A DNA stretch of 52,259 bases, filler included, from Jimgerdemannia flammicorona (taxonomy: Eukaryota): NCBI GenBank assembly GCA_003990765.1. It is 2 parts of 2 records of this genome, joined end to end, with 100 filler letters (N's around TTAATTAATTAA, not from the genome) between each part and the next. Parts side by side here need not be neighbours in the genome. Positions count along the whole stretch, not along the records: positions 26,181 to 52,259 come from RBNJ01000765.1; 1 more part is not named here. One strand, 5' to 3'. The notes beneath the pieces were generated by a model, which worked only from the letters and a program-made list of their open reading frames with translations, was not told the origin of the DNA and ran no database searches. Made by a program: the position numbers and the translations under genes. Below, in pieces: positions 16,634 to 51,765 of this stretch (position 1 is the first letter of the stretch; each line of letters opens with the position of its first letter).

Positions 16634-16667
<34 letters not shown>

Positions 16668-22224: not shown

Positions 22225-22334
22225 TGTTGAATAAATGCGTAAATGTCTGAACGTCGAAGTGAGCAGTTTGTTTTGGACTTGTTATGTTATGTCATCATAG
22301 CTGCACGTGATTTTATCACGTTTTCGGCCTATCG

Positions 22335-22800: not shown

Positions 22801-23264
22801 TTACAATCTGAAGAGATGTTAGAAACGTTTTGCAAAAGACCATATAATTATAGTCACAGTCCCTGAAAGTCATATCTTAGCTCACATATAAGAAACTATT
22901 GAAGAAAACCCTGTCAAGGCGCGATGCAACTGTAGGCGAGCGAGATATGATTCATGGATCGTCATTTAGAATACCATGACGGCGATCAGTTTCCAGAAAT
23001 GAGCATGAATCGTCTTCACGAGGGGTAGTGGGAATGGCCCAAGCCCATTTCAAGTAAACCCCATTGTGGCTTCTGAGATAGCGGAGGAACTTGGCCGACG
23101 TGAGATGATTTCATGGAGATATGGAGCAATTCGGAAATGCAAAGAGCAGAACATGGATCTACGGACATGCCATGCGAAGCAATGGTGCGATAAAAGGGAG
23201 CTTGTTCACATGCGAATCCCACCCAGGAGGGGGTTCGGGACCCACCGTGGGACTTTTCGCCGTC

Positions 23265-23272
23265 TGACGTCA
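23265..23272. promoter_or_regulatory. Perfect CRE/ATF palindrome TGACGTCA about 100 bp upstream of the FBP1 ATG
   Basis: Exact motif match. Function is inferred only. Confidence 0.4.
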
Positions 23273-23375
23273 AATCGCAAGTCACATGCTACCTCTCTTC
23301 ATTATTTAGTGCGTGCTTGCCTCAACGTCCCCCTCTTCCGCACTCTTGTTTTTTCTACCCAACAAACCCACTTCA

Positions 23376-25355
23376 ATGGCCGAAATCGACAACGAGACTG
23401 TCTTTGAAAAGATCAACACTGGCGTCGGCACCGACCTCATCACGATGACTCGCTGGGTTCTGGATCAGCAGCGCGTATGTGTTTTCTTGACAGGGCAGTT
23501 CTCAAGTGATTGCCGTATAGCTTTCGAGTAACAAAATGTGCTCTCTTGGCCGTGTCTTTCTCAGAAAGTCCAGGATGCCTCCGGTGACCTGACCATCCTC
23601 CTAACAGCAATCCAGTTTGGCTGCAAATTTGTCGCTTCCAAGGTCAAGCAGGCCGGTTTGATTAACCTGTGAGTAGGAAATCCAGATATGTTTTCACGAA
23701 AGAATTTATGTTGCTCTCTCCGAATCGTTTTTCCGCATCACCCTCGATAGAGGTGTCGCGAATTGATTACAGGAGGCGAGGAAATGTCGTCTACGTACGG
23801 AGACGAGATCCGAGGAAAGCGTATGGTGTTTGAAACCGAGGTTCAGTGACGCTACAAATTTGGACAATGTTCACTCATCTGCAGCACATGCGTATCTTTC
23901 TACCTGTTATTCCATACTTTCTCTCACATCCAACTTAGACTGGGCCTCACAGGTTCCTCCAACGTTCAAGGCGAAGACGTGAAAAAACTGGATGTACTCG
24001 CCAACGACATCTTCAAGAACGCGCTGGTGGCCTCGGGCAAGTGCTGCTTCCTCGTCTCTGAGGAGGACGAACGAGTGATGGTGATCGAGGACCCATCTTT
24101 CCGCGGCAAGTACATTGTGACATTTGACCCCTTGGACGGATCAAGTAACATCGATTGTGGTGTGTCGATTGGGACCATTTTTGGGATTTTTAAGGTGGTG
24201 AGTAGGAAGGGGTATGGTCATATGCGATTCATTCTTTCCTAGGCGCCTGCGAGCACATTTTCACAAACACTTGTGCATATAAGCAACTTTACAAGATTTC
24301 TTATTCAATCCAATTTTCAATCTCTAGCATGACGACCACGCCCCTGGCAGCAAGGATATCATCCGCTCCGGTCGCGATCTAGTTGCTGCAGGTTACTGCA
24401 TGTATGGCTCGTATGTCGAGCTTATTGTGGTACGCATCCTCCCGACTTGTGTAGATCAGGGTTGCCTTGCTAATGTGCTATTGTAACATTTCTATCTTCT
24501 CACCGCTTCTCACCGCTTCTTCGCTCCAATAGTCTGTCGGCACCGGTCTTCATGGCTTTACACTCGACCCCGCCATTGGCGAATTCATCCTCACTCATCC
24601 TTCGGTACCCATGATGTCTTTTTATCTGCTTTGCATTTTGTATTCACTCTGTTCTTTCACTCAGCTTCCCTAAACTTGCACATTCGACTAAACAGATCAG
24701 AATTCCCTCGCGCGGAAAGATCTACTCCATCAACGAGGGCAATTACAAGTATTTTGATGAGCCCACAAAGAAGTACGTGGATTCTGTTAAGACCAAGTAC
24801 TCAGCGCGCTACGTAGGTTCCATGGTTGCTGACGTACACAGAACTGTTTTATACGGAGGTGAGTACGGGCTGGAGGAGGTAATCCTGCTTATGATATATA
24901 AGAAATGATTGTATTTTATACAACGGTGGACGTGAAGACATTTTTGGAGCATGGATTGGGTCAAGCTGTTGACAATTTTCACGAATCTTTAATGATATTT
25001 ATTTGTCGGGAACGGTATTTTTAAGGTATCTTCGGCTATCCCGCTGATTCTAAGGTGATTCTCTCTACTACTTTTGTGGACATTGTCCCATACGTTTCCT
25101 CGTGTTTTTCGAGCCAAAAATTTTGATCGATTCGATATCATATACACCTATTCCTTTTAGTCCAAAAACGGCAAACTCCGCATCCTTTATGAAGTGTTCC
25201 CGATGGCCTACCTCGTTGAACAAGCGGGTGGGCGCGCCTCGACCGGCAAGCAGGACGCACTGGACATTACTCCCCGTCATATCCATGACCGTTCGGGCGT
25301 GTGGTTGGGATCGGCAGACGACGTGGCGGATTTGGAGGCGTTTTATAGGGCTTAG
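23376..25355 (+). CDS. FBP1: Fructose-1,6-bisphosphatase class I, 8 exons, about 340 aa. Exons: 23376-23474, 23565-23668, 23939-24197, 24328-24429, 24533-24604, 24696-24858, 25026-25054, 25161-25355
   Basis: Motifs [42 protein letters not shown] and GKLRILYE. All introns are GT-AG and in phase. Confidence 0.97.
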
Positions 25356-26080
25356 ATGGGGTAGCGAGGGGGTAAAATTGTCGTGAACACAAATGCATAA
25401 AGTAATCAAGCCCTACCCTTCCTCATATCTTTTTTTTTTTTGTTCTTAGTTTCATGTTTTCTTTAATTTGATGCTCATTGAAGGCAGAATATTAAACTGA
25501 ACTGCCGGTGACAGTATATTCAATATCAAGAGCCGTGACCACAAGCTCCAGTGCCGTATCATATCAATACATGGCCGCTTAACATGTCAACTTCTAATTG
25601 AAAGAAGAAAAGAGGGAGGAGGGATCTAGAATGATAAAACAAAGAAATTTATGCAGCTGCTATAATCGGGCCGTCATTTCGTGGCAAAGCCAGATAACAC
25701 AGCAATGCCAGCGACATGACATAAGTCTTAACAAAATGCTAGGCATGAGAAAAAACAGCAATTGAACCTCAATGAGATTTTCAAGTGGAGGCCAGACCCA
25801 TATTTGGCAACTAGTATGGATTCTGACCAACCACGTTTTCGTGAAAGGAGTACCCCTTTCGCAAGGTGGGTCGAACTTTTGGCACTGTCTGTTGTCGTCA
25901 CACGAGAGACAGTTCCCCGTATCGCTACGTTGGCGGCGAGAGCTCGCCGTCTCATCAGCTCGAGCATCTGCAGCTACACGGCAACAGAAGCTACTTCAAA
26001 CCATGCAATGTGAATCTCGCTCGATTCAATCAAATACTTTATGACGAACAACTGAAGGCGGTAAAAAAAAAAAAAAAGAA

Positions 26081-26180
26081 NNNNNNNNNNNNNNNNNNNN
26101 NNNNNNNNNNNNNNNNNNNNNNNNTTAATTAATTAANNNNNNNNNNNNNNNNNNNNNNNNNNNNNNNNNNNNNNNNNNNN
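26081..26180. other. Assembly gap with artificial six-frame-stop linker TTAATTAATTAA (26125-26136)
   Basis: N runs symmetrically flank a 12-mer commonly used when contigs are concatenated. Confidence 0.95.
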
Positions 26181-29100
26181 CTCAAATATATACAGCCAGT
26201 ATCCTGCTAGCCCTACCCATATAGCCAGCACCCATCCTAAAGTAAGTCATTCTCTTCCAACCCCTCTTACCAATCTATCTCACAGATCCTCCTACCAATC
26301 CCTCATACCATCCCCCCTCTGCATAATATCCAATCTCTTCTCAACTGCTATCTAAAAGTTACTGAGCACCTCATACTCCTCTAGCTACACTCTATCAACT
26401 ACTCCCCACCAAAAGCTCTTAAACTGCAGTCTCTGAATTCCATTGAGCCCTACCAAAGAGAGTAGATCTCCTGAGGACCCTTGGGGGGAGGTTCTCATCT
26501 CCCACACCTTCTGCAGCAGAGACACCCAACCCCCTCCTTGCAGTTCAGTCACTCTCTTCAATCACTAGGTTTACAAGTAGTGCAACCTCTTAGGGAAATC
26601 CACAAGGCCAAGACCTCCATGGACCACCAGTGTTGCAAGAGTATCCCAACTGATCTGGGACCTCCTCCTTGCCCAAATCCAATCCCTAGCCACCTTTGTC
26701 AGCCTCTTCACCACCCAAGCTGGGAAGTCCAGGTGGTAGGCTACATACCATAGCTTGGGAAATCAGTATATATTCAGAATTGATACCTGCCCTGCTAGAG
26801 AGATATGATGGCCTCTCTAACCTCGAAGGGCCTCTCCCCAAATAGCCACCCTGCTCTCCCACCACACTCATGGCAAGACAGAGCCATATACAGAGAGGAA
26901 GATGCCCAGATACCATACTACCTCACCAGTAGGGACAATTGTTCCAATAATGTCCCCACCCACCAGTCCATTCTCTAGCACCATAGTCTCACACTTATAC
27001 CAGTTGAGCTTTGCCCCAGAGTGATTCTCATACTATTCCACCATCTCCTTAAGTGCCTCAACATCTGCCACAGACTTAAGGCCAACTACCATATCATCTG
27101 CAAAGGCTCCCACCTTCCACACTATGCTATAGATAGAGAGCCCTACCACCTTCTGGCGAATCCTATCCATCAATGGTTCCAATGAGATGGCATAAAGAAT
27201 AGGTAACAGGGGGTCCTTCTGAGAAACCCCTCTTCTCAAGGTAAATGCCAGACCATAGTGACCATTACACATCAGTGCTGCCTGACTGCCCTCTAGCAGA
27301 CTCAACATAGAAATCTGAAATCCTGGAGGAACACTAATATGATCCAATACCTTGCCCAGCCAGATCCACTGGACCCAGTCATAGGTCTTCTTCTGGTTCA
27401 AGAAGATCAACCTTCTATCCAGGCCACAAGCCCAGGCCCCTTCAATGATACCATGCACTCATGCAGTCTCATCTCTTATAAGTCTGCCTCCAACAAAGCC
27501 CTACTACTCCCCCCCCAGCACCTGTTGGGCAACCTTCTGTAGCCTTGCAACAACCACCTTAGTCACCATCTTTCTGTCTATGTCCAAAAGCATGATCAGT
27601 CACCAGTTCTTCCAGTCTTCTCTCCTCCCCTTGTCTTTGTACAATAAAGTCACCAGCCTGAGGTCCTGCTCTCCAACCCACTCACCACTCTGAAGAACAT
27701 GATCACAGAGAGCAGTCATCTCACCTAAAATGCCAGGGACCTTAACCATCTTCTTCCAGAAGTCCCATGGTAGTTCATCCTCCCCTAGTACTGTTCCAGT
27801 TTTAGTTGCTGCAAGGACACTCTGGACCTCCTCACCTTGCACTGGCAAGGCCAAGTCATCTAGTTCAGCCACTTACAGTGGCCTCCATTCTCCTAATGAA
27901 TCTTCATTAGCACCCCCTTCTTCCTCACTCTACAAACTCTACTATCTCTCTTTCAAAACCCCTAAGATTTATTGTGTGCCATGTACCATATCCCAATTGG
28001 CATCTAGGACTCCATCCCACCAATGTCTCACCCTCCTAGCTTTGAGCAGATGGGATAAATATCTAGTAGGCCACTCACTCTCCTCAAGCCCCTGCCACCT
28101 TAGCCTAGCAGCCATATCTCACATACACACCTCCTCCTCTTCTCTCAATATCTGTTGCAGTTCCATTATCTCCAATTTAATCTGTGCTAACCTCCAATCC
28201 TCCACCCCATCAGAAGTGAGCAAACCTGCCCAATCCATTTGCAATCTCCTCAGCCTGTTGAAAGTATACCTTGTGCACTTCCTCCTCTATCTCCCAGCTT
28301 TTCTCCCAGCTCCTCCCCAATAGACCCTTACAGCCTCTTTCAATCTCATCCAACAGACACCCACTAACAAACCCTCACACCTCCAGTAAGAAACTTTCAC
28401 CTGAATGTCCTCTATCTATGAATCCCACAACCCCTTCTCAGCCAGCAGGGAGGAGTTAAGGCACTAATGTCCAGGTCCATCTCCACTTCCCCCAAATTGC
28501 CCCTGTCTTAATAGTCTCCAGTGATCAGACCATGGGCACCATTCTACCTCCAATACCTTCCAGACATCAGACCCCCAGCATTCTGCTATCAGAATCCAGT
28601 CAATCCTTGTACCTAAGCCATTCATCCAATATGTGTAGACCCTGGAGTTGCCCCATTGTGTTCTGCTCATATCTCCTAAGGAGCTCAGCCACTCCACCTC
28701 CTCACATGCATCCAGGCCTCCACTTCTCCCTCCTGAACTCCTCCCACCATCAGTTCAGTCCAGATGCTGATCCTGAACCATATTAAAGTTCCCCTCAAGC
28801 ACATCAACCCCTTCTGCCAAGAGAATACCCTCCTCCAGCAGCTCCTTAATCTATGCAATCCTCTCACCCCTAACTGTAGGGCAGTAGCAAGAGCCAACCC
28901 TCACTGTCTCCCACTCCGGCTGATGCCAATCTCCCCAGACCAAGTGATCACCCTAGCTCCCAATACCCCCCAAGTCTCCTCTACCCTTCCTCATCAGAAT
29001 CGCTACTTTTTCAAACTAAGCAGTAGCCCTACCCCATTCCCTAGTCCACTCAACCCAATTGTCCTCATCCTCACACCAAACATTCTACAGTAAAAAGAGA

Positions 29101-34848: not shown

Positions 34849-36199
34849 CATCTCTCTCCGGTACAATTCATATTACACAAACTTCAAGCAATAGTTTTAT
34901 ATACAACTTGGAGAAACAAACATGGGCAACATGGGCAACATGGGCAAGACAGGCAAGATGGGCAAGATGGGCAAGATGGCAAGACAGCAAGACAGGTGAT
35001 ATGGGCAAGACAGGCAGATGGCAAGACAGGCGATATGGGCAAAATGGGCAATATGGGCAATATGGGCAAGATGGGCAAGATGGGCAAGATGGGCAATATG
35101 GGCAACACGGGCGGGCAACATGGGCAATATGGGCAACATGGGCAACATAGGCAGGCAAGATGGGCAAGATGGGCAAGACAGGTAAGTGGCAAGATGGGCA
35201 AGATGGGCAAGATGGGCAAGATGGGCAAGATGGGCAAGATGGGCAAGATGGGTAAGACGGGCAAGACAGCAAGATGGCAAGATGGGTGACATGGGCAAGA
35301 TGGGCAGACAGCAAGACAGGAGACATAGGCAAGATGGGCAAAACAGGCAAAATAGGCAAAACAGGCAAAACAGGCAAAACAGGCAACACGAGCAATACAG
35401 ACAATACTGGCAATATGGGTGGGCAACATGGGCAATACAGGCAGGCAATACAGGCAACACGGGCAACATGGGCAGATAATACGGGCAACACAGACAACAC
35501 GGGCAACATGGGCAATATGGGCAACACAGGCAACATGGGCAGGCAAGATGGGCAAGAAGGGCAAGATGGCAAGATGGGCAATATGGGCAAGACAGGTAGA
35601 TGGCAAGACAGGCGACATGGGCAAGATGGGCAAAACAGGCAAAACAGGCAAAATGAGCAACATGGGCAATATGGGCAATACAGGCAACACAGGCAATATA
35701 GGCAACATGGGCAGGTAAGATGGGTAAGATAGGCAAGATGGGCAAGATGGATAATATGGACAATATAGGCAAGACAGGCAAGATAGGCAATACGGGCAAT
35801 ATGGGTGGGCAATATGGGTAACATGGGCAACACAGGCAACATGGGTGAGTAAGACAGGTAAGACAGGCAAGATGAGCAAGACAGCAAGATGACAACATGG
35901 GCAATATGGGCAGGCAAGATGGGCTAGAGGGGCAAGACAGGAGGCACTAATAGGGATAGGTCAGGTGCACTAGATGCCAAGTACTTGAGGTGGTTGGGGC
36001 TCACAACCCATACCCACTAGGTGGGACAGGCTGGGTAGGAGGATCTAGTTACTCAGGCAATGAGGTCGCAACTTATACCCTAAAGGTGCAAGGCTGGGAG
36101 TGGGTTGAGATTGGAGTAGAATAGGACTACTGATGTTGTATGAGAATATGTGGCATGTTATAGATAGTTAATAAATGATTCACACTACAAAAAAAAAAA
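34849..36199 (+). mobile_element. Non-autonomous poly(A) retroposon carrying a 9-bp tandem repeat, with a 16-bp TSD
   Basis: AATAAGCAGGTGGGCA is duplicated at 34833-34848 and 36200-36215. AATAAA at 36170 and A-tail at 36189-36201. Confidence 0.8.
34921..35925. repeat. Degenerate 9-bp minisatellite, consensus ATGGGCAA(G/C/T), about 1 kb
   Basis: Tandem units ATGGGCAAG, ATGGGCAAC and ACAGGCAAA are visible directly. Confidence 0.95.
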
Positions 36200-36937
36200 A
36201 ATAAGCAGGTGGGCATCTTGGTTGGTGTAGGCAAAGGCAAGCTGGTAGAGATAGAGATCTATGGTGACAGATTGATTTAGGGAAGACTAAAAGGAGGGGC
36301 AGGTGATGGTTTGACAGTTGGATTGATTTACCTCCCTGCAGTTGGCAGAGAGTGAAAACAATGGGTTGAGAGAAGGTAGGCATAGGATGGTCAGGAGGTA
36401 GTTGCTTTGGACATTCTGGAGTGGGACTTCAATATGGTGTAGAGGAGGAAGAAGGCCCAGCAGGAGCCAAGAGAGCGAACCCAGAGCCAGTGTCAAAGCG
36501 AACAGAAGATATGTGGGAGAGCGTATATAAGGGGGACGAACAAAGAATGTAACCAAAAATGCATCAGCTGTTTATTGCCACATAAAAACGCGGTCCTTAT
36601 ATACAAAATATGACATCCCAAAAGGAAGGATGTGCCACAACTTGGGCCAAACCAAATTAGGAACCACATGACTGCCGGAGATAGGCAGAGATAAAGGGGG
36701 AGCCAATCCTAGTTGCAGGATAAAAATCACAAATAAACACAAACAAAACAAATACAAATCGAGATTAAAAAACATCCACAGACCCTGGAGGGGTGAGCAC
36801 AAGCGAGGGGTGAGGCCGAAACGGAGCGAGCCACAGCGAGCCTAAGTGAAGCGAGGGGCCGAAGGTAGCAGAGGGGAGCGGAGTGAGGCCAAGACCCCAG
36901 AGTGAGTGTGAGACCCCGGAGGGGGCAAGGATGTTTT

Positions 36938-38992
36938 TTAATCCTCTCTGGCAGAATCAGAGGCACCAGAAGGTGACGAAAACACAAAACGAGAGTGATG
37001 GATTGAAGAGGAAATAGAAGGAAGATGCGAACGAGCAATCAGAGGGCATTGGGAAAGAGATGAAAGTCCATGGCATGAAAGAGAAGAGCACAGGATGGTA
37101 TCAGGGCATTGAGCAACCCAGCAAGCATGATCAAATGGTACGACAAGAATCAGGGGTGGGAAAGAAGAGGGGGTATAGAGAGGGTAAGGGAGGAGAGAGG
37201 GAAGGGAGGGGGGATAAAGAGGAGAGAGTAGGGTAGAGCGAACAACAGACTATTCAACAGAAGCAAGCAGATCATGAATGATAGAAATAGGGTAGGCATG
37301 ACAATGAACCATGAAGTTGCCAAGAACCTGAACAGCAGACACCCAATCAGAACGACAGGAGTAGCATAATGCAAGATGATGAGCCTCACCCCTAATGCAA
37401 TCAAGAAGAGTGTGATGAGGATGATTGGACAAGAAGTCAGGGAACTGTTAGGAATGGGGAAAATGAGAATAAACAACAGTTCAGAAAGAAGAAAGAGAAA
37501 TGGAAAGGTCCAAAAAGGGAATACTAGTCATACTGCACACCCAGGCAATAGAATGATGGGGAGAGTAGACACCCAGGAACACACTAGGGATATCAACACC
37601 AGCAACAGTGAAGACAATAAAGTCATCAATGTATCAGTGAAAGAAGATATCCCCAGCCCGGAACACAATGGAAAGAGGTGAAGTGATATCACATAATACA
37701 TACAATTCGTGGGCCAGGCCAATGAGGTTGGCAAGAGTAGGGGCATAATTCATTTCCATGGCAATATCAGAAGTCTGGTGAAAGGAGCCAAGGGCTGACT
37801 CAAAATAATTAGAGCCACAGACAAAGAGCATAAGCTCAACAATGGAAGCCAATGAAACTGGGGAATCCAAAGGAAAAACAATGGAACCCAAGAAGTGAAG
37901 GCAAGCATTGATCTCATCAAAACGAATAGCAGTATAAAAGGAGGAGAAATCACCAGAGGCCAAGTGGGAAAAATGGTGAACAGGTACAATGGTGGAGCAG
38001 AGAAGGGTGAGCTCCTGAGTATCACGAAGAATGGTATACTCAGGCCCAAGACAGTGTTGTAAGAGAGCCATCCAGGAGAGAAAGAAGTGAGATAATCACT
38101 TCGAAATCTCGGTGGTAGGAGAACTGTAAGCAGCTGTAATAGGATGCCAAGCCAAAGTAGGCTTGTGAACTTTAGAAAGAGCATAGAAAACCAGAAGAGA
38201 AATATCCGGGGAGGACAAAGAGACCTGGAAGAAGTTAAAAATGGGGTTCACGAACAGAGAATCCGAAAGTGATCTAGTATGAGCCAGAGATACCCGAAGA
38301 AGAGTGAGAACCTCATCCAATCCAAGAGCACTAGGCTTGTAAGCCGTGGCTTGAAGGAGGGCAAAAAGGCCATCAAGGTAGAGCAACTTAGGAATAAGTG
38401 CAAAACCCTGATTCTTATCAGTGACTGTGAGCAAATACATAGGCAATTGCTTGACCGATTTAAGCATGGTACACACAGCATGGTCCAAAACCAAGCAAGA
38501 GCAAGCATGTCCAGGAACGGACAATGAGCAAGCCATGTCGAGGAATATGCAGTGTGAAGAGACATTGGGAGAGGGGACCCAATCACTAGGAACAAAATAG
38601 CGAGAGGGCATCTCACCATGATATTGAAAGAAAATGGCAAGGTCAAGAGCATGATGAAAGCATGTGAGACGAGCTGGATCGGTGAAGGAGAATTGTGAGA
38701 GAGTCGCAGAAAAAACAAAGCAAGAACCCAAGGATAAGGCAAAGACTTGAAGGAGAGAAAGGGGGCAGTCAGCCGAAGAAAAAGGAGGAGACAAAAGAGT
38801 TCCAAGAGAAGAATAAACCTGAAAATTCGGGACAAGCAACTGGGAAAGGCAAAGGGGGGACAACATGAGGAACCACTCAGGGCGCACCAGAAGCGATGAC
38901 GGAATCTGAGAAGGGATGGGGATACCGGGGGAGAACCACACTGGGGGGAAGTTTAAGAGCAGGAGGCCTTCTCCTTCTCTCTGACTTTTTTT
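36938..38992 (-). pseudogene. PLE reverse transcriptase, copy 1 (decayed)
   Basis: ORF pieces 38096-39022, 37634-38071 and 37250-37432 carry PLE RT and thumb motifs. Confidence 0.85.
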
Positions 38993-40170
38993 GAAGATGG
39001 CAAGCTCGACAAATGAGAGCACACCCCATCAGAGTGCCAGACCTTGCAGCCACAGGCTTTCGTACAGCCCTTGCATTCAGGGGCATGGGTGGAGGAGGTG
39101 GAGGAGGAACTGGCAGAGGAGGCCAAAGGCAAGCGAGTAGCCGAAGGGGCAGCAGTACGAGGAACACCACCATGAGGACAGATGGACTTGGCCAGGTGCC
39201 AGTAGGCACAGTGGAGGCAACCGGAGCAGACCGCGCAAGGCCAGGCCCCAATGGGGCGAGAACCAAGTTGGTGGCCACACTTGGGGGCAGGGGGAATGGA
39301 GGAGGAAGTCTTGGCAGGGGAGGGGGACCGGGAAGAGGCCGACGAAGCCTGATTGGGCTTGGCAGGGGTCTTGGCAGGGGTCTTGGAGGGGGCCTTAGTG
39401 GTGGCAGCAGTGAAGGAATGAATCTCAGCATGAGCAGCAGCATGAGCTTCAGTATGAATGGCCTCGGAGACCGAAACCTCAGGGGAGGCAGGCAGGGGAG
39501 TAGTGGTGGCAGTGCGAGCAGCGGTGGCAGCACGTGATGTCTCCTGCTCATGGAGGTGAGTAACAAAGGAGGTGCCAGCGAGGAGAAAATGACATACAGC
39601 ATTGATGTCAGTAGCGACAGAAGGAACGTCTTGGATGGCGAAGCCACAGAAGGGGGCAGTATCCAAAAGGTGAGAGGAGGTAAAGGCCACAAAAGCAGTA
39701 CAGGCATATTGGAAGGAGGCGGAAGCAGTGGCAGCGGAAGCAGCAGTGGCATCAGCGGTGGTGAGCTTGGCGGTGGCAGTGGCAGTGCAAACCTCTTTGA
39801 AGAGGGCTTGGCGGTGGGCCTCAGGGAGAACAGAATAGTGGATGGCAGGCAGAGTAATGACATCGACATCATGGCGGAGATGAGCCTCCTTGGCAGAGAG
39901 GGCGAGAACCGACTGAAACTGGGAAAGGAGTGGACAACCAGAGGGACAAAGGTCCAAGGGGAGGGAAAGGATGGCAGACAAGACATAGGTCTCAAACGAG
40001 ATAGTGGTGGGGGTGAAGGCGGGGGGAGGAGGAGGAGGAAGTTCCTCATCCATGAGCTCATCGATGAGGATGGTGGCCCTGAGGGCAGGTGGTACAGCAG
40101 AGGAGGAAGAAGGTCCAGCGGGAGCCAAGGGAGCGAACCCAGAGCCAGTGTCAAAGTAAATGGAAGACAT
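38953..40170 (-). CDS. PLE ORF1 (405 aa; Ala-rich helical region, Pro/Ser linker, two Cys/His clusters)
   Basis: Open in this copy. Homologous frameshifted copies lie at 40856-42071 and 48079-49300. Confidence 0.65.
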   Translation of the reverse strand: MSSIYFDTGSGFAPLAPAGPSSSSAVPPALRATILIDELMDEELPPPPPPAFTPTTISFETYVLSAILSLPLDLCPSGCPLLSQFQSVLALSAKEAHLRHDVDVITLPAIHYSVLPEAHRQALFKEVCTATATAKLTTADATAASAATASASFQYACTAFVAFTSSHLLDTAPFCGFAIQDVPSVATDINAVCHFLLAGTSFVTHLHEQETSRAATAARTATTTPLPASPEVSVSEAIHTEAHAAAHAEIHSFTAATTKAPSKTPAKTPAKPNQASSASSRSPSPAKTSSSIPPAPKCGHQLGSRPIGAWPCAVCSGCLHCAYWHLAKSICPHGGVPRTAAPSATRLPLASSASSSSTSSTHAPECKGCTKACGCKVWHSDGVCSHLSSLPSSKKVREKEKASCS

Positions 40171-40420
40171 GTGGAAGAGTGTGTATAAGGGGGATGAACA
40201 AAGAACGTAACCAAAAATGTATCAGCCATTTATTGCCACGTAAAAACGCGGTCCTTATATACAAAATACGATGTCTCAAAAGGGAGGACACGCCACAACT
40301 TGGGGCAAACCGAATTAGGAACCACATGACCACTAGAGATAGGCAGAGATAAAGGGAGAGCCAATCCCAGTTGCAGGATAAAAATCACAAACAAACACAA
40401 ACAAAACAAATCCAAATTGA

Positions 40421-40601
40421 GATTAAAAAACATCCTTGCCCCCTCCAGGGTCTCATGCTCGCTCCAGGGTCTCAGCCTCACTCTGCTCCCCTCTGCTGCC
40501 TTCAGCCCCTCACTTCGCTCGGGCTTGCTGTGGCTCGCTCTGTTTCGACCTCACCCCTCACTCGCACTCACCTCTCTGGGGTCTGTGGATGTTTTTTAAT
40601 C
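40421..40601. repeat. PLE GC-rich cassette bounded by the 15-bp inverted repeat GATTAAAAAACATCC/GGATGTTTTTTAATC (other copies: 36763-36943, 44080-44260, 47645-47825, 51274-51439)
   Basis: Five copies read directly. Two of them sit exactly at inversion centres. Confidence 0.9.
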
Positions 40602-42032
40602 TCGATTTGGATTTGTTTTGTTTGTATTTGTTTGTGATTTTTATCCTGCAACTGGGATTGGCTCCCCCTTTATCTCCACCTATCTCTGATGGTCATATGG
40701 TTCCTAATTCGGTTCGCCCTGAGTTGTGGCATGTCCTCCCTTTTGGGATATCATATTTTGTATACATATAAGGACTGCGTTTTTACGTGGCAATAAACAA
40801 CTGATGCATTTTCGGTTACATTCTTTGTTCATCTCCCTTATATATGCTCTTCCACATATCTTCCATTTGCTTTGACACTGGCTCTGGGTTTACTCCCTTG
40901 GCTCCCGCTGGGCCTTCTTCCTCCTCTGCTGTACCACCTGCCCTCGGGGCCACCATCCTCGTCGATGAGCTCATGGATGAGAAACTTCCTCCTCCTCCTC
41001 CCCTGCCTTCACCCCCACCACTGTCTCATTCAAGACCTATGTCTTGTCTGCCATCCTTTCCCTCTCCTTGGACCTTCATCCCTCTGGTTGTCCGCTCCTT
41101 TTCCAGTTTCAGTTGGTTCTTGCCCTCTCCACCAAGGAGGCTCATCTCCGCCATGATGTCAACATCATCACTCCACCCGCCATCCACTATTCCATTCTCC
41201 CTGAGGTCTGCTACCAAGCCCTCTCCAAAGAGGTTTGCGCCGCCACTGCCACCACTAAGCTCGCCACCACTGATGCCACCACTGCTTTCACTGCCACCAC
41301 TTCCACCTCCTTCCAACATACCTGTGCCACTTTTGTGGCCTTCACCTCCTCTTGCCTTTCAGATGCTGCCCCCTTCTGTGGCTTCGCCATCCAAGACGTT
41401 TCTTCTGTCACTGCCGACATTGACGCTGTACATCGTTTTCTCCTCACTGGCACCTCCTTCATTGCTCGCCTCCATGAGCAGGAGACGTCATATGCTGCTG
41501 CTGCTGCTTGCACTGCTGCCACTACTCCCCTGCCTACCTCCCCCGAGGTTTTGGTCTCTGAGGCCATTCATGCTGAAGCTCATGCTGCTGCTCATGCTGA
41601 GGTTCGTTCCTTCGCTGCTGCCGCTGCCAAGACCCCCTCCAAGACCCCCGCCAAGACCCCCACCAAGCCCAATCAGGCTTCGTTGGCCTCTTTCCAGTCC
41701 CCCTCCCCCACCAAGGCTTCCTCCTCCATTCCCCCTGCCCCCAAGCATGGCCGCCAACTTAGTTCTTGCTCTGTCGGGGCCTGGCCTTGCACAGTCTGCT
41801 CCAGTTGCCTCCACCATGCCTACTGGCACCCGGCCAAGTCCGTCTGTCCTTATGGTAGTGTTCCTCATGCTGCTGCCCCTTCAGCTGCTCGCTCACCTTT
41901 GGCCTCCTCCGGCAGTTCTTCCTCCGCCTCCTCCACCTATGCCCCTGAATGCAAGGGCTGCATGAAAGCCTGTGGCCACAAGGTCTGGCACTCTGACAGG
42001 GTGTGCTCTCATTCGTCGAGCTCGCTACCTTC

Positions 42033-44085
42033 AAAAAAGTCAGAGGGAAGGGGAAGACCTCCCGCTCTTAAACTTCCCCCTGGCATGGTTCTCCCCTAGT
42101 ATCCCTGTCCCTTCTCGGATTCCATTGTCACTTCTGGTGTACCCTGAGTAGTTCCTCATGTTGTCCCCCCTTCACCTTTCCCAGTTGCTTATCCTGAATT
42201 TTTGGGTTTATTCTTCTCTTGGAACTCTTTTGTCTCCTCCTTTTTCTTCGGCTGACTGCCCCCTTTCTCCCCTTCAAGTCTTTACCTTATCCTTGGGTCC
42301 TCACTTTGTTTTTCCTGCAACTCCCTCACAATTCTCCTTCACCGATCCGGCTCGTCTCACATGCTTTCGTCATGCTCTTGACCTTGCCATTTTCTTTCAA
42401 GATCATGGTGAGATGCCCTCTCACTATTTTGTTTCTAGCAATTGGGTCCCCCCTCCCAATGTCTCTTCACACTGCATATTCCTCGACATGGCTTGCTTGT
42501 TGTCCATTCCTGGATGCACTCACTCTTGCTTGGTTTCGGACCATACCATGCATACCACGCTTAAATCAGTCAAGCAATTGCCTATGCATTTGCTCACAGT
42601 CACTGATAAGAATCAGAGTTTTGCACTTATTCCTAAGTCACTCTACCTTGATGGCCTTTCTGCCCTCCTTCAAGCCATGGCTTACGAGCCTAGTGCTCTT
42701 GGATTGGATGAGGTTCTCACTCTTCTTTGGGTATCTCTGGCTTATGCTAGATTGCTTTCGGATTCCCCATTCATGAACTCCATTTTTAACTTCTTCCAGG
42801 ACTCTTTGTCCTCCCCAGATATTTCTCTTCCAGTTTTCTATGCTCTTCCTAAAGTTCACAAGCCTACTTTGGCTTGGCATCCTATTATGGCTGCTTATAG
42901 TTCTCCTACCACCAAGATTTCGAAGTGGTTATCCCACTTCTTTCTCTCCTGGATGGCTCTCTTACAACACTGTCTTGGGCCTGAGTATACTATTCTTCAT
43001 GATACTCAGAAGCTCACCCTTCTCTGCTCTACCATTGTGTCTGTTCACCGTTTTTCCCACTTAACCTCTGGTGATTTCTCCTCCTTTTATACTGCTATTC
43101 ATTTTGATGAGATTGATGCTTGCCTTCACTTCTTGGGTTCCATTGTTTTTCCTTTGGATTCCCCGGTTTCATTGGCTTCTATTGTTGAGCTTATGCTCCT
43201 CGTCTGTGGCTCTAATTATTTTGAGTCGGCCCTTGGCTCCTTTCACCAGACTTCTGGTATTGCCATGGGAATGAATTGTGCCCCCACCCTTGCCAACCTC
43301 ATTGGCCTGGCTCATGAATTGTATGCATTACGTGATATCACTTCACCTCTTTCCATTGTGTTCTGGGCTGGGGATATCTTCTTTTGCTGATACATTGATG
43401 ACTTTATTGTCTTCGCTGTTGCTGGTATTGATATCTCTAGTGTGTTCCTGAGCATCTACCCTCCCCACCATTCTATTACCTGGGTGTGCAGTATGACTAG
43501 TATTCCCTTTTTGGACCTTTCCATTTCTCTTTCTCCTTTCCGAACTGTTGTTTATTCTCATTTTCCCCATTCCCAACAGTTCCCTGACTTCTTGTCCAAT
43601 CATCCTTGTCACACTCTTCTTGATTGCATTAGGGGTGAGGCTCATCATCTTGCATTATGCTGCTCCTGTCATTCTGATTGGGTGTCTGCTGTTCGGGTTC
43701 TTGGCAACTTCATGGTCCATTGTCATGTCTACCCTATTTCTATCATTCATGATCTGCTTGCTTCTGTTAAATGGTCTGTTGTTTGTCCTACCCTACTCTC
43801 TCCTCTTTATCCCCCCTTCCTTCCCTCTCTCCCCCCTTACCCTCTCCATTCCCCTCTTCTTTCCCACCCCTAATTCTTGTCATACCATTTGATCATGCTC
43901 GCTGGGTCACTCAATGCCCTGATACCATCCTGCACTCTTCTCTTTCATGCCATGGACTTTCATCTCTTTCCTGACGCCCTCTGATTGCTCATTCACATCT
44001 TTCTTCTATTTCCTCTTCAATCCATCGCTCTCATTTTGTGTTTTTGTCACCTTCTGGTGCCTCTGGTTCTGCCAGAGAGGATTAA
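42033..44085 (+). pseudogene. PLE reverse transcriptase, copy 2 (decayed), no GIY-YIG domain
   Basis: ORFs 42158-43390, 43442-43873 and 43771-43974. The reconstructed C-terminus ..PLIARSHLPSISSSI..SARED* ends at the TAA inside the cassette inverted repeat. Confidence 0.85.
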
Positions 44086-47000
44086 AAAACATCCTTGCCC
44101 CCTCTGGGGTCTCGCACTCACTCCGGGGTCTCGGCCTCACTCCGCTCCCCTCTGCTGCCTTCAGCCCCTTGCTTCACTTGGGCTCGCTGCAGCTTGCTCT
44201 GTTTCGGCCTCACCCCTCACTCACGCTCACCCCTCCGGGGTCTGCAGATGTTTTTTAATCTCGATTTAGATTTGTTTTGTTTGTGTTTGTTTGTGATTTT
44301 TATCCTGCAACTGGGATTGGCTCCCCCTTTATCTCTGCCTATCTCTGGCAGTCATGTGGTTCCTAATTCAGTTCACCCTGAGTTGTAGTGCATCCTCCCT
44401 TTTGGGATGTCGTATTTTGTATATAAGGACTGCATTTTTACATGGCAATAAATGGCTGATGCATTTTCAGTTATGTTCTTTGTTCATCCCCCTTATACAT
44501 GCTCTTCCACATGTCTTCCGTTCGCTTTGACACTGACTCTGGGTTCACTCCCTTGGCTCCCGCTGGGCCTTCTTCCTCCTCAACTTTCTCATTGGCTTTA
44601 GGTGGAGCAGGACAGGGGTTTGGTGGATGGCATTTGTCAATGACAAGGGGATAAGCTAGGACCTTTTACTCAATGGCATCTGGTGGGAACAGCCTTGGTT
44701 GGGACACAAATAGATTGAGTACTAGTGGTAGAGTGCTGGGGCAATATACTGGATACTGCTGAGGTATGCTGGTGCTCTTGGTCTGATCACTGGAGAGTAG
44801 AGGTTTACAGTCAATTCCAAGCAGTAGATAGTGGCAGAGGGTGCTGGCACCTCAATATAGCCTTACTCAGGAGGAAGAAGGAGAGGGACCAATTTATGAC
44901 AGTTATGAGTCAGGAAGTAAGGTGATGACAGAATGAAGGGCAGTTGATTACAGGATGGTGGGACAAATTCAAACATCTGGCTGGTGCTTACTGGCATGAT
45001 GTTAGAGAAGTGGCTGGGAAGGAGCAGAAGGACAAGGAAAGGAGAGTAGAGAAGGGGCTGAGATGGCAATTGAAGCTTTTGGAAGAGGGGAACTTATCTG
45101 GAGAGGTCTGCCACTGATTGGTACTGGAGGTGGCAGAGCTGCAGGCGGATTTAAGAGTATCTGAGAGCAGGGTGATAGATGGCCTACTGGCCAGACTGTG
45201 AGCTAGATGGTTGGAAGAAGGAGAGAGACTGACAAAATATCTGTCTGGTGTTTTGAAGGCCAGAAGAGTATGGTATAGTTGGGCCTCAGTATTGCATGAA
45301 GATGGAGTTGAGGTCTTTGGCATTGCTGACATGCTAGAGGAGGTATCCAGTCAATGGCAAGCTCTTTGGTAGAATGATGGGAAGCATGCTGAGGTTACCA
45401 GGCCTGAAGAGGATGACAACAATATAGTGACCAATTGGCCAGTAACCAGGATATCTGAGATAGGGGAGGCAGTCATGGGGAGGTTTCTCTAGATGAAGTA
45501 TTGGAGGTACTGAGAAAGACACAGACTGGTTCATCTCCTGGGGAGGATGGACTGCTCTGGGAATTCTGGAAGGAGTTTAAGACAGAGTTTGGTAGCTGGT
45601 TGTTGGAGATGGCTAATGCTATTCTGAAGGAGGATAGTTGGATTGGCAATGGTTTCTTGGGGCTAGTTTCTCTTCTATATAAAGAAAAGGGAGATTGACA
45701 AATATGGCATAATTGGCAACCTATCATGCTGCTGAATGTGGATAGAAAACTAGTATCAAAGATTCTAGCAGGGAGGTTGCAACAGTATGTTGGTGCACTT
45801 GTTGGAGAGGAGCAGTGAGGCTTTGTCAAGAGAAGGCAGATCAGGGATAGTACTGCTTGGGTGCTGAATATCTTAGAGGGCTGTAGGAGCTGGCAGATAG
45901 ATGGCCAGATGGTCTTTCTAGATCAAGAGAAAACCTATGACAGGGTGCAGTGGAGTTACTTGGAGGCTGTTCTGAGGAGGGCAGGGTTTGGTGTCAGAGA
46001 GGCAGGGTGATTGATGGGCTTGATATGGGAATGCTGAGCAGCAGTAATGATGAATGGATGGTATGGACCAGAGTTTATGTTAGGGCATGGAGTATCACAG
46101 GGGGACCCTCTCTCCTTCCTTCTTTATGTACTTTCTCTGGAGCCTTTGCTGGTATGGTTGAAGGAGCAGCTTTCTGGACAGCAGATGGGAGATGTAGTCT
46201 GGCAGTTGGGTGCTTTTGCAGATGACATGATGGTATGGTTGAGGAGTCAGGAGGATGTCAAAGTCCTACAGGAAGGGGTTGGACAGTATGAGAGGCTGGC
46301 AGGGGCAAAGTTGAATTGGAGCAAGTGTGAGACAATGGAACTTGGTGCTGGCCTGGGGGGACATGGACAATTTGGACATTTGATAGCCACAGGGAGTACT
46401 GTTCTATATCTGGGTATCTGGTTCTCAGTGTATGAGACAGTCCTGTCAAGAGAGTAGTGATGTGGATTGATTCAGAAGCTGAAAGGTACACTGACAGGTT
46501 GGTCAGGAAGGAACTTCTCCTTGGCAGGCAGAATAGTAGTTTTGAATGTGTATTGGCTGCCCAAACTGTGGTACCTTAGTTATCATCTGGATTTTCCAGG
46601 ATGGGTGGTGCAGTGGCTGAAGAAGATTATAGAAGGATGGTTATAGTGTGGGAGACATCCACAGATTGGGTAGGAAACTCTGGTGATGAGGATTTCTGAT
46701 TGGGGCATAAGGCTGGTGGACTTCAGATGCCAGCTAAAGGTACTTAGGGGTTGGTGGGGGTGCCGAATGCTTGAACTTGGTGAGGAAGGGTGGGGCAGAC
46801 TGGCCATGGACAATTGGGAGATCTGGTTCTGCCCATGAGGTGAGGTTTGGAAGGATATATGGGGCTTACTTTAGGTTGGAAGTATAGGAAGACTGCAGTT
46901 TAAGGGGTTCTGGTAGGGTATTGTAGAGGCCTGGCTGGCCATAGAGTTGGCAGGCCCAGAGATAGAGGTGAGTGAGAACTCTGAGCTGAGATGGTAGCAA

Positions 47001-47319
47001 CTGGAAGACCTTTGCATTGATGGCCACAGTTTGAAGGAGTACTCTCTGGTTGAGGCAATGGAGTAGATCAGGTCAGGCCCTCTGGAGAGATGGCCATCTG
47101 GTTGGCAGAGAGTTGGTATTGGTGAAGACTGGGAGTGGATTCGAATCTAGAATTGGGGAGCCTCAGTATACAAGATGGTGCCGCCCAAGTACTGGGTGGT
47201 TTGGTGGTAGTTCTTAAGATGAAATATGATACTGAGCTATCAGACAGGCTGAATGGAGATAGATGGCTGTTGGGATGATGAATGGTGCAATGAGGTGGAT
47301 GGAGGGGTTGTTCAGACAC

Positions 47320-50300
47320 CAGAGGAGGAAGAAGGCCCAGCGGGAGCCAAGGGAGCGAATCCAGAGCCAGTGTCAAAGCGAATGGAAGACATGTGGAAGA
47401 GCATATATAAGGGGGACAAATAAAAAATGTAACCAAAAATGCATCAGCCATTTATTACTACATAAAAACATGGTCCTTATATATAAAATATGACATCCCA
47501 AAAGGGGGGGACGCACCACAACTCGGGGCAAACCGAATTAGGAACCACATGACCACTAGAGATAGGCGGAGATAAAGGGGGAGCCAATCCCAGTTGCAGG
47601 ATAAAAATCACAAATAAACACAAACAAAAACAAATCTAAATCGAGATTAAAAAACATCCTTGCCCCCTCCGGGGTCTCGCACTCGCTCTGGGGTCTTGGC
47701 CTTACTCTGCTCCCCTCCGCTGCCTTCAGCCCCTCGCTTCACTCGGGCTCACTGCAGCTTGCTCTGTTTCGGCCTCACCCCTCGCTCATGCTCACCCCTC
47801 CAGGGTCTGCGAATATTTTTTAATCTCGATTTGGATTTGTTTTTGTTTGTGTTTGTTTGTGATTTTTATCCTGCAACTGAGATTGGCTCCCCCTTTATCT
47901 CCACCTATCTCCGGTGGTCATGTGGTTCCTAATTCGGTTCACCCCAAGTTGTGGTGCATCCCCCCCCTTTTGGGACATCATATTTTATATATAAGGACTG
48001 CATTTTTATGTGGCAATAAATGGCTGATGTATTTTCGGTTACATTCTTTATTCATCTCCCTTATATACACTCTTCTACATATCTTCTGTTCACTTTGATA
48101 CCGGCTCTGGGTTCGCTCCCTTGGCTCCCGCTGGGCCTTCTTTCTCCTCTGCTGTACCACCTGCACTCGGGGCCTCTGTCCTTGTCAATGAGCTCATGGA
48201 TGAGGTACTTCCTCCTCCCCCTCTCCCTGCCTTCACCCCCACCACTGTCTCATTCGAGACCTACATCTTGTCTGCCATCCTTTCCCTCCCCTTGGACCTT
48301 TGTCCCTCTGGTTGTCCGCTCCTCTCTCAGTTCTGGTTGGTTCTTGCCCTCTCTGCCAAGGAGGCTCGGCTCGTCTCTGCTGTGATGTTGACATCATCAC
48401 TCCGCCTGCCATCTGCTACTCCATTCTCCCTGAGGCCTGCCACCAAGCCCTCTCTGAAGAGGTTTGTGCTGCTACTGCCACTGCCAAGCTCACTGCCGCT
48501 GATGCTGCTGCTGCTTCCATCACCACCGCTTCTGCCTCCTTTCACCATACCTGTGCTGCCTTCGTGGCCTTCGCCTCCTCTGACTTTTTGGATGCTGCTC
48601 TCTTTTGTGGCTTCGCCATCCAAGACGTTCCTTCTGTCACTACCAACATTGATGCTATATGTCATTTTCTCCTCACCGGCACCTCTTTGTTGCTCACCTT
48701 CATGAGCAGGAGATGTCACGTACTGCCGCCACTGCTCGCACTGCTGCCACTGCTTCCCTGCCTACCTCCCCCAAGGTTTCAGTCTCTGAGGCCATTCATG
48801 CTGAAGCTCATGCTGCTGCTTGTGCTGAGGTTTGTTCCTTCACTGCTGCCACCACCAAGGCCCCCTCCAAGACCCCCATCAAGACCCCCACCAAGCCCAA
48901 TCAGGCTTCATCAGCCTCTTCCCAGTCCCCCTCCCCTGCCAAGGCTTCCTCCTCCATTCCCCCTGCCCTCAAATGTGGCCATCAACTTGGATCTTACCCC
49001 GTTGGGGCCTGGTCTTGTGCTGTCTGCTCCGGTCACCTCCACCATGCTTACTGGCACCCGGCCAAGTCCGTCTGTCCTCATGGTGGTGTTCCTCACACTG
49101 CTGCCCCTTCGGCTACTCACTCACCTTCGGCCTCCTCCACCAGTTCCTCCTCTACCTCCTCCACCCATATCCCTGAATGTAAGGGCTGCACGAAAGCCTG
49201 TGGCCACAAGGTCTAGCACTCTGATGGGGTGTGCTCCTATTCGTCGGGCTTGCCACCTTCAAAAAAAGTCAGAGGGAAGGGGAAGGCCTCCCACTCTTAA
49301 ACTTCCCCTTGACATGGTTCTCCCCTGGTGTCCCCATCCTTTCTCGGATTCCGTCATCACTTCTGGTGTGCCCTGAGTGGTTCCTCATGTTGTTCCCCCT
49401 TCACCTTTCCCAGTTGCTTGTCCCGAACTTTCGGGTTTACTCTTCTCTTGGAACTCTTTTGTCTCCTCCTTTTTCTTCAGCTGACTGCCCCCTTTCTCCC
49501 CTTCAAGTCTTTGCCTTATTCTTGGGTCCTCACTTTGTTTTTCCTGCGACTCCCTCACAATTCTCCTTCACTGATCTGGCTCATCTCACACATTTTCATT
49601 GTGCTCTTGATCTTGCCATTTTCTTTCAAGATCGTGGTGAGATGCCCTCTTGCTGTTTTGTTCCTAGCAATTGGGTCTCCCCTCCCAATATCTCTTCATA
49701 CTGCATATTCCTTGACATGGCCTGCTTGCTGTCTGTTCCTGGATGCGCTTGCTCTTGCTTGGTTTCGGACCATGCTGTATATACCATGCTTAAATTGGTC
49801 AAGCAATTGCCTATGCATTTGCTCACAGTCACTGATAAGAATCAGAGTTTTGCACTTATTTCTAAGTTGCTCTACCTTGATGGCCTTTCTGCCCTCCTTT
49901 GAGCTACAGCTTATGAGCCTAGTGCTCTTGGATTGGATGAGATTCTCACTCTTCTTCGGGTTTCTCTGGCTCGTACCAGATCACTTTTGGACTCTCCTTT
50001 TGTGAACCCTATTTTTAACTTCTTCCAGGACTCTTTGTCCTCTCTGGATATTTCTCTTCTGATTTTCTATGCTCTTCCTAAAGTTCACAAGCCTACTTTG
50101 GCTTGGCATCCCATTATGGCTGCTTATAGTTCTCCTACCACCAAGATTTCGAAGTGGTTATCTCACTTCTTTCTCTTCTGGATGACTCTCTTACAACACC
50201 ACCTTGGGCCTGAGTATACTATTCTTCATGATACTCAGGAGCTCACCCTTCTCTGCTCCACCATTGTGCCTATTCATTGTTTTTCCCATTTGGCCTCTGG

Positions 50301-51765
50301 TGACTTTTCCTCCTTTTATACTGCTATTCATTTTGATGAGATCAATGATTGCCTTTGTTTCTTAGGTTCCTTGGTTTTTCCTTTAGATTCCCCAGTTTCG
50401 TTGGCTTCCATTATTGAGCTTACACTCCTCATCTGCAGCTCTAATTATTTTGAGTTGGCCCTTGGCTCTTTTCACCAGACTTCTGGTATTACCATGGGAA
50501 CAAATTGTGCCCCCACCCTTACCAACCTTGTTGGCCTGGCCCATGAACTGCGTACATTACATGATATTACTTCACCTCTTTCCATTGCATTCTGGGCTGG
50601 GGATATCTTCTTCTGCCATTATATTGATGACTTTATTGTCTTTGCTGTTGCTGGTATTGATATCCCTAGTGTGTTTCTGGGCATCTACCCTCTCCACCAT
50701 TCTATTATCTGGGTGTGTGGTATGACTAGTATTTCCTTTTTGGACCTTTCCATTTCTCTTTCTCCTTTCTGAACTATTGTTTATTCTCATTTTCTCTGTT
50801 TCCAACAGTTCCCTGACTTCTTGTCCAATCATCCTCATCGCACTCTTCTTGAATATATTTGGAGTGAGGCTCGTCATCTTGCATTATGCTGCTCCCATCA
50901 TTCTGATTGGGTGTCTGCTGTTTGGGTTCTTGGCAACTTCATGGTCTATCATCATGCCTACCCTATTTCTATTGTTCACTCTTCCCTACTCTCTCCTCTT
51001 TATTCCCCCTCTCTTCTCTCTCTCCCCCCTTACCCTCTCCATACCCCCTCTTCTTTCCCACCCCTGATTCTTGTCATACTATTCAATCGTGCTCACTGGG
51101 TTGCTCAACACCCTGATACTGTCCTGCACTCTTCTCTTTCATGGCATGGACTTTCATCTCTTTCCTGATGCCCTCTGATTGCTCGTTCGCATCTTCCTTC
51201 TATTTCTTCTTCAATCCATTGCTCTCATTTTGCATTTTCATCACCTTCTGGTGCCTCCAGCTCTGCCAGAGAGGATTAAAAAACATCCTTGCCCCCTCCG
51301 GGGTCTCGCGCTCACTCCGGGGTCTTGGCCTTACTCCACTCCCCTCTGCTGCCTTTGGCCCCTCACTGTGGCTTGCTCCATTTTGGCCTCACTCCTTGCT
51401 CATGCTCACCCCTCCAGGGTCTGCAGATGTTTTTTAATCTAGATTTGGATTTGTTTTTGTTTGTGTTTGTTTGTGATTTTTATCCTGCAACTGGGATTGG
51501 CTCCCCCTTTATCTCTGCCTATCTCCGGCAGTCATGTAGTTCCTAATTCGGTTCGCCCTGAGTTGTGGTGTATCCCCCCCCTTTTGGGACATCATATTTT
51601 GTATATAAGGACCGCGTTTTTACATGGCAATAAACAGCTGATGCATTTTTGGTTATGTTCTTTGTTTGTCCCCCTTATACACACTCTTCCACATGTCTTC
51701 TATTCACTTTGACACTAGCTCTGGGTTTGCTCCCTTGGCTCCTGCTGGGTCTTCTTCCTCCTCTG
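47320..51765 (+). mobile_element. Second PLE insertion: inverted pLTR arm 47320-47644, cassette 47645-47825, ORF1 (48079-49300), RT (49261-51279), 3' pLTR to 51765
   Basis: Same family as 36441-44581. ORF 49933-50772 contains PKVHKP, GITMG and HYIDD. The termini are inverted repeats of about 330 bp. Confidence 0.9.

Follow-up and report, generated by a model that had tools for sequence, protein, structure and literature searches.

A 52,259-nt stretch of the Jimgerdemannia flammicorona genome (GenBank assembly GCA_003990765.1; hereafter the window, along which all positions are counted) carries two insertions of a Penelope-like element (PLE) in which we found no recognisable endonuclease. Both insertions end on either side at the element's own 3′ terminus, and both switch orientation inside the same 15-nt inverted repeat. 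We tentatively propose that complementary DNA (cDNA) was primed from the two ends of a pre-existing chromosome break and that the two cDNAs were joined by pairing over those 15 nt. The architecture itself is a known hallmark of PLEs; the possible novelty is to find it in an early-diverging fungus, in an element that lacks an endonuclease and at a site where no telomeric repeats lie close by. This suggests that the head-to-head layout does not need the endonuclease.

Anatomy of the two insertions

BLAST self-comparison of the 36–52-kb region, together with a repeat finder, resolved one repeat unit with three segments: a ~3.15-kb body, a 151-nt cassette and a ~340-nt tail. Cassette and tail form a pseudo-long terminal repeat (pLTR) of ~505 bp that is present at either end of every full copy. 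In the same BLAST self-comparison, the direct pLTR pair of insertion 1 (40421–40926 and 44080–44581) matched at 88.4% and that of insertion 2 (47645–48151 and 51274–51765) at 86.6%. The tail contains a TATA-like box and AATAAA.

Insertion 1 (36441–44581), delimited by self-comparison and by its termini, is an 8.1-kb palindrome of two full copies placed head-to-head. With a prime marking the reverse complement, its order is tail′, cassette′, body′, tail′, cassette, tail, body, cassette, tail. Arm A (36441–40435, minus strand) runs from its 3′ tail (36441–36777) through a cassette (36778–36928), a repeat arm (36929–36943) and the body (36944–40098) to its 5′ tail (40099–40435), the inner end of which, at the central junction, is the 15-nt inverted-repeat arm GATTAAAAAACATCC (40421–40435, plus strand). 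The central 151-nt cassette (40436–40586, plus strand) is the sole unpaired part of the palindrome and is oriented as arm B. Arm B (40587–44581, plus strand) then comprises a 5′ tail (40587–40926), the body (40927–44079), a repeat arm (44080–44094), a cassette (44095–44245) and the 3′ tail (44246–44581). In inverted orientation the arms (36442–40435 and 44581–40587) matched at 90.1% over 4000 columns of the BLAST self-comparison, bearing out the palindrome with two full arms described in an initial annotation of this DNA.

Insertion 2 (47316–51765, plus strand) consists of an inverted tail followed by a full copy with two direct pLTRs, in the order tail′, cassette, tail, body, cassette, tail. 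It aligned directly to insertion 1 (47316–51763 to 40094–44581) at 86.9% over 4504 columns. Its inverted arm matched at 88.9% over 343 columns (47316–47657 and 48155–47813) and is 344 nt long by repeat coordinates (47316–47659, minus strand), the inner 15 nt (47645–47659) being the repeat arm; the full copy with an inverted arm had been recognised in the initial annotation, and the length given there, 325 nt, has to be corrected. The 5′ pLTR cassette (47660–47810, 151 nt, plus strand) is followed by a direct 5′ tail (47811–48150, plus strand), which begins with the repeat arm in the form GAATATTTTTTAATC, with two transitions, and holds TATATAAGG as well as AATAAA. The 3′ pLTR (51274–51765, plus strand) is made of a repeat arm (51274–51288), a cassette shortened to 136 nt by a 15-nt deletion (51289–51424) and a tail (51425–51765). 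In both insertions the inverted copy adjoins the 5′ pLTR: insertion 2 is built as Penelope typically is, and insertion 1 represents the full-length head-to-head variant of that structure.

All four outer ends fall at the same nucleotide, ...GGGCCTTCTTCCTCCTC(T), in agreement with the earlier claim that the element's 3′ end occupies both termini of both insertions, and the four adjoining flanks are mutually unrelated. This fixed terminus lies ~130 nt downstream of the first ATG of the tail. Self-comparison of the window revealed neither further copies of the element elsewhere in the 52 kb nor any inverted pair linking the flanks. We also considered an RNA hairpin at the terminus; a predicted fold spans it, yet none of its 32 pairs shows a compensatory change, and we did not use it.

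The 15-nt inverted repeat flanks all five cassette copies, with GATTAAAAAACATCC upstream and GGATGTTTTTTAATC downstream. Its upstream arm is perfect in 5 of 5 copies; its downstream arm is perfect in two, and the remaining three have one or two transitions. No perfect inverted repeat in the unit is longer, and none of 200 shuffles of the unit reached even 14 nt. The upstream arm is where the inverted tail ends in either insertion, which puts the switch of orientation inside those 15 nt, as had been annotated. The repeat arms formed the closing stem in predicted folds of the central junction as DNA (z −4.5; 0 of 200 shuffles as good) and of a 3′ pLTR as RNA (z −2.7; 2 of 200 shuffles as good).

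Differences among the copies are mostly transitions (about 95–99%). Arms A and B differ at 389 aligned sites, with 384 transitions and 5 transversions, and insertion 2 differs from them at 469 and 462 sites, of which 447 and 443 are transitions and 22 and 19 transversions. Columns variable for C and T were followed by a G-containing column in 197 of 338 cases, against 62 of 1049 fixed C columns; likewise, a C-containing column preceded 211 of 295 columns variable for G and A, compared with 49 of 522 fixed G columns. The element copies have thus decayed by CpG-targeted transitions, which makes divergence a poor guide to age. At 36–52 kb the observed/expected CpG ratio was 0.14–0.41; it fell to about 0 in the remaining repeat-like parts and reached 1.0 at 12–26 kb, where the genes lie. 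Taken over the repeat-like parts as a whole (1–10000 and 26000–52259) it was 0–0.4, compared with 1.0 at 12000–26000, a sign that CpG-to-TpG decay acts strongly and specifically on the repeats of an Endogonales-like genome.

The four tails of insertion 1 agree in their indel states, and the three tails of insertion 2 agree in different ones. The arms of insertion 1 are sister copies, separated from each other by 5 transversions and from insertion 2 by 19–22 each. Common tail indel states and sister arms together indicate one source lineage per structure. This fits either two annealed cDNAs or a single cDNA folding back, and it counts against unrelated nested insertions.

The reverse transcriptase and its endonuclease-less relatives

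The coding region is decayed. Arm B (40805–44085, plus strand) keeps one frame over 40805–43873 with three internal stops, followed by a frameshift and an ancestral TAA (44083–44085) in the repeat arm. The corresponding reverse transcriptase (RT) frame of insertion 2 (49225–51168, plus strand; P0002) has two internal stops. In all three copies the open reading frame (ORF) ends in ...ARED-TAA with the TAA inside the upstream repeat arm, so the earlier statement that the RT ORF ends at the cassette stands. The RT core of arm B (42602–43606, plus strand) contains TDKN (42602), LPKVHKP, SGDFSSFY, GIAMG, YIDD (43391) and SNHP (43606), matches RVT_1 at E 2e-4, and aligns with relatives at each of these motifs; the motif names for PLE RTs partly follow PMC13159263.

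The sense strand is 67% pyrimidine, and long open frames in several phases are therefore expected and do not prove coding. The region N-terminal to the RT yielded no Pfam family and no usable Atlas match, and its two long frames owe their openness to the pyrimidine richness of the strand alone. Upstream of the RT, an alternative frame (38953–40221, minus strand; 40981–42099, plus strand) contains Cys/His-rich stretches (for example C-x2-C-x2-C and C-x2-C-x3-C-G-H) and Ala/Thr-rich runs, with no family matched. This frame may be what is left of a nucleic-acid-binding part, or else a first ORF in its own right.

With P0002 as the query (stops written as X), protein searches returned 1366 matches at E ≤ 1e-3, of which 109 reached E ≤ 1e-10. 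Among the best 66, 7 had a Pfam GIY-YIG domain C-terminally, beside RVT_1, and a custom PLE GIY-YIG profile built from those seven C-terminal-type domains matched 25 of the best 150. In the element itself, Pfam searches at E ≤ 10 of three sense frames in each of three copies gave no GIY-YIG, RVT_1 being the sole match with E < 1, and the custom profile reached a best score of 0.7 bits over six frames of the whole window. Two complete ORFs of relatives, P0008 (622 amino acids) and P0172 (Gigaspora, 554 amino acids), stop ~20–30 residues past a C-terminal motif that they have in common with the window ORF.

Two phylogenies placed the window copies apart from endonuclease-bearing PLEs. The first (122 rows, quick search, LG+G4; 29 of 149 phmmer matches left out for short coverage) grouped them with P0005, P0008 and P0009 at a Shimodaira–Hasegawa-like approximate likelihood ratio (SH-aLRT) support of 96, outside a clade (98) that contained all but one of the 24 endonuclease-bearing rows. 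The second (126 rows, comprising 74 of 76 metagenome loci, 48 of the 120 earlier rows as hand-picked clade representatives, two named proteins and the two window rows) recovered a seven-row clade (99) of the window copies, P0005, the Gigaspora margarita and Racocetra fulgida proteins, P0008 and P0009. These two named proteins are the nearest named relatives of the window RT, and every member of the clade, the complete ORFs P0008 and P0172 included, lacks an endonuclease domain. Both trees flagged the window rows for unusual composition. A profile of the clade had no sequence match among solved structures. The RT is Penelope-like, and its nearest relatives are endonuclease-less proteins of Glomeromycota and metagenomes. 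The absence of a recognisable endonuclease from the element, and from its closest intact relatives, is thus supported, in line with the initial annotation of an endonuclease-less PLE.

A DIRS-like element, which would carry a tyrosine recombinase, RNase H and LTR-type RT motifs, was considered on account of the inverted terminal repeats. We rejected it: there is no recombinase, RVT_1 is the sole Pfam match with E < 1 in nine sense frames, motif B of the RT has the Q..G..MG form, and the matches are PLEs.

A search for tandem telomeric motifs (12 patterns, at least two units) found no match in the 52-kb window; the element had been called non-telomeric, which holds for that window only. A telomeric array was likewise rejected, given that the window has no telomeric repeats and the element lies in both orientations. 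(CCCTAA) repeats next to the RT are a known mark of telomere-attaching PLEs. Downstream of the RT, (CCCTAA)3–6 occurred in 12 of 76 related metagenome loci, none of which belongs to the nearest clade, the DNA covered here coming from outside that clade; these endonuclease-less PLEs are L002, L005, L007, L008, L018, L020, L025, L038, L048, L051, L060 and L076. Direct repeats were present in 34 of the 76 loci, many of them exact 123- or 127-bp overlaps of contig ends, as expected of tandem or circularly assembled units. An inverted repeat of at least 80 bp was found in 1 of the 76, on contigs that are short and tend to break at repeats.

No hammerhead motif was detected in these decayed copies with Rfam at E ≤ 1 over 36–52 kb, with Rfam at E ≤ 10 over one pLTR, or with the pattern CTGANGA...GAAA within the element. 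As a control, Rfam at the gathering score found no hammerhead in 20 related loci either, and the negative is accordingly weak.

Possible routes to the inverted structures

How could an element without an endonuclease produce two such structures? The explanation we favour, with somewhat less than even confidence, is two-ended cDNA priming at a pre-existing break. The element would exploit a chromosome break already present, and its RT would start cDNA at one fixed internal site of the RNA, ~130 nt past the first ATG of the tail, from the 3′-OH of both sides of the break. One minus-strand cDNA would copy the whole RNA and stop just beyond the upstream cassette, in GGATGTTTTTTAATC, and the second would stop in the complementary GATTAAAAAACATCC, either after 340 nt or after a full unit. 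The two 3′ ends would then pair over 15 nt, and each would be extended on the other to the opposite flank, achieving second-strand synthesis and bridging of the break in one step. We infer every one of these steps; what is seen directly is the anatomy, the position of the junction, the fixed termini, the absence of the endonuclease and the common source within each insertion.

Several points weigh against this proposal. It rests on two insertions in one window, both ~10% decayed, in which neither a target-site duplication nor a break signature is readable. The sequence does not separate two cDNAs from one cDNA folding back, and the model does not explain why both long cDNAs would terminate precisely beyond the upstream cassette. 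The TATA-like box is on the downstream side of the cassette. PLE RTs are not known to have an RNase H domain that would make the cDNA ends single-stranded. Finally, in Frangieh et al. 2024 (PMC11167929), extension of both strands is demonstrated for an endonuclease-bearing animal element and not for the clade of the window element.

The closest competitor is intramolecular fold-back, which had been put forward in the initial annotation and which we consider rather unlikely. A minus-strand cDNA that had passed the upstream cassette would pair its 3′ end with its own complementary repeat and copy itself back to its 5′ end. Use of the near copy of the repeat, 151 nt away, would give insertion 1; use of the far one, which lies in the 3′ pLTR where the first tail ends, would give insertion 2. 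Working the geometry by hand on the coordinates, with an RNA beginning at the upstream arm, we obtained the exact reverse complements of both insertions, cassette orientation included. The closing stems formed by the repeat arms in the predicted DNA and RNA folds and the sister relationship of the insertion 1 arms are also in its favour. Nor is the idea new: palindromes at inverted junctions have already been read as self-priming in Penelope (PMC3846280). Against it, a chromosome-primed cDNA that is copied back would adjoin its own flank and form a hairpin cap, and after replication the opposite side would carry the flank in inverted form. Instead, the flanks are unrelated, with no inverted flank pair in the window self-comparison, and fold-back would thus need an extra step joining it to the second end of the break. 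A chromosome end capped by a hairpin and then replicated was discarded for the same reason, the flanks not being inverted copies.

The fold-back proposal therefore stands as a geometry that yields both architectures exactly, and it is not separable from annealing of two cDNAs. We modestly prefer the version with two cDNAs, in which the duplex bridges two different flanks without a separate second-strand step. That version also agrees with the extension of both strands in vitro, and it leaves room for unrelated flanks, where a copied-back target-primed cDNA would leave an inverted copy of one flank opposite.

Rearrangement at the DNA level after an ordinary insertion seems improbable. It could proceed by pairing of the short inverted repeat within one strand once a break has formed, by template switching during replication, or by recombination or gene conversion between nearby inverted copies. 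Short inverted repeats can seed large palindromes, the centre of the palindrome is exactly such a repeat, and the region is rich in repeats. However, both outer ends of both structures are the element's 3′ terminus to the nucleotide, a boundary that DNA duplication would ignore, and it is these ends that make such a rearrangement unlikely. The same junction also recurs in two separate structures with unequal arm lengths.

An assembly misjoin of separate copies across the common pLTR is very improbable: tandem and inverted PLE structures are said to trouble assemblies (PMC8557442), but the arms differ at ~10% of sites and so are not one sequence used twice, the tail–cassette–tail junction occurs twice with different sequence, and the tails within each insertion agree in indel states.

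Known elements, wider readings and the surrounding sequence

In the canonical endonuclease-bearing Penelope/Poseidon elements, such as Pen2a_Av of Adineta vaga and PAc of Anolis, the pLTRs lie in partial tandem and contain a TATA-like box, as in the window element. Arkhipova et al. 2013 (PMC3846280) described the typical Penelope as two direct pLTRs with an inverted pLTR next to them, its overlap with the direct one being 15 bp (Pen2a_Av); the window element resembles Pen2a_Av in that its inverted pLTR adjoins the 5′ pLTR and is joined to it at a short palindrome. The Poseidon PLE protein studied by Frangieh et al. cleaves and extends both target strands, and its reverse transcription starts at fixed internal sites 111–118 nt into the ORF, without homology to the target. 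Similar to PAc, with its RT start at that position, the window element has a pLTR that ends slightly inside the ORF. Unlike Penelope/Poseidon, it is without GIY-YIG, its RT falls outside the endonuclease-bearing clade, no hammerhead was found and its host is a fungus; moreover, it ends without the optional 30–40-nt extension and has no readable target-site duplication.

The telomere-associated Coprina and Athena elements, of which Coprina is known from fungal hosts (PMC13159263, PMC8557442), resemble the window element in lacking an endonuclease and in having one RT ORF with a DKN motif and a thumb region. By contrast, the window element has no telomeric repeat, either in the element or in the window, occurs in both orientations and shows the inverted-pLTR layout. 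According to PMC3846280, endonuclease-less PLEs of fungi and protists do not share the inverted-pLTR organisation. Endonuclease-less PLEs away from telomeres include PLE-X of Chara and Selaginella and MjPLE01 of the kuruma shrimp, found genome-wide, as the PLE-X families are, or at ribosomal DNA (PMC8557442). Those elements arose within endonuclease-bearing clades and retain hammerhead and CxC motifs, whereas the nearest relatives of the window element are endonuclease-less fungal and metagenome RTs.

Parallels exist outside PLEs. Endonuclease-independent LINE-1 (long interspersed nuclear element 1) insertion, twin priming and template jumping of non-LTR elements involve pre-existing 3′-OH ends, inversions by second priming and jumps at short complementarity. 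L1 twin priming inverts a 5′ part within one copy and does not produce two outward element 3′ ends. The likeness of these processes to our proposal lies in the use of pre-existing 3′-OH ends and in second-priming inversions, and the difference in the class of RT. Our literature search turned up no work on how PLEs are built in Endogonales or Mucoromycota; one paper only lists PLEs among Gigaspora repeats.

A broader and more speculative reading, which we regard as unlikely on present evidence, is that an endonuclease-less PLE lineage of early-diverging fungi (Endogonales and relatives in Glomeromycota) left the telomere and, with no telomeric-repeat primer site, still builds the full Penelope architecture. 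If so, the fixed internal start of reverse transcription and the head-to-head, pLTR-forming strand transfers would be properties of RT and RNA and not of GIY-YIG. This would move the cause of the tandem and inverted layout to RT and RNA, where published work by Craig et al. (PMC8557442) suggests that the properties of the endonuclease set these complex structures. It would also give a simpler system, RT alone with a 15-nt repeat, for second-strand synthesis and inverted-repeat formation in PLEs, and endonuclease-less PLEs living apart from telomeric repeats would gain a further example.

The two insertions are separated by a 2.7-kb spacer (44582–47315, plus strand) that lies outside the element and holds a LINE-like RT fragment, identified by collinear tblastx matches to 26.4–28.6 kb (minus strand) and 8.4–10.2 kb (plus strand). 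The window thus contains three decayed LINE-like (non-LTR) RT fragments, at 44582–47315 (plus strand), ~26400–28600 (minus strand) and ~8400–10250 (plus strand). The spacer fragment has PLE 3′ termini on both sides. Insertion of the element into a LINE was rejected: the outer flanks do not continue the spacer LINE, with scores within the shuffle range and a control scoring 46 against a shuffle maximum of 27.

The arrangement offers one further lead, and only a lead, namely that the minus strand from 51765 to 36441 may be one multi-template cDNA that repaired a single break. Such a cDNA would have started at a PLE RT start site (51765), been copied back to an element end at 47316, switched to a LINE RNA (antisense, 47315 to 44582), then to a second PLE RT start site (44581), and been copied back again to 36441. 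The orientations would agree by chance in about one case in four, and the different indel states of the two insertions count against it.

The rest of the window supplied several separate observations. On the left of insertion 1, at a distance of 500 bp, a 9-bp unit (ATGGGCAAG) is repeated ~100 times in a minisatellite (34922–35941). A TOG-domain gene of the XMAP215/Stu2 type has exons at 13265–19663 (minus strand); one of them (15351–16622, minus strand) shows 100% identity to a partial TOG-domain protein listed at NCBI for Jimgerdemannia flammicorona and 74% to one from Endogone. Two runs of N, 44 each, lie at 26081–26124 and 26137–26180. At 1672–2027, 356 bp match their own reverse complement at 84%, in a region of 27% G+C.

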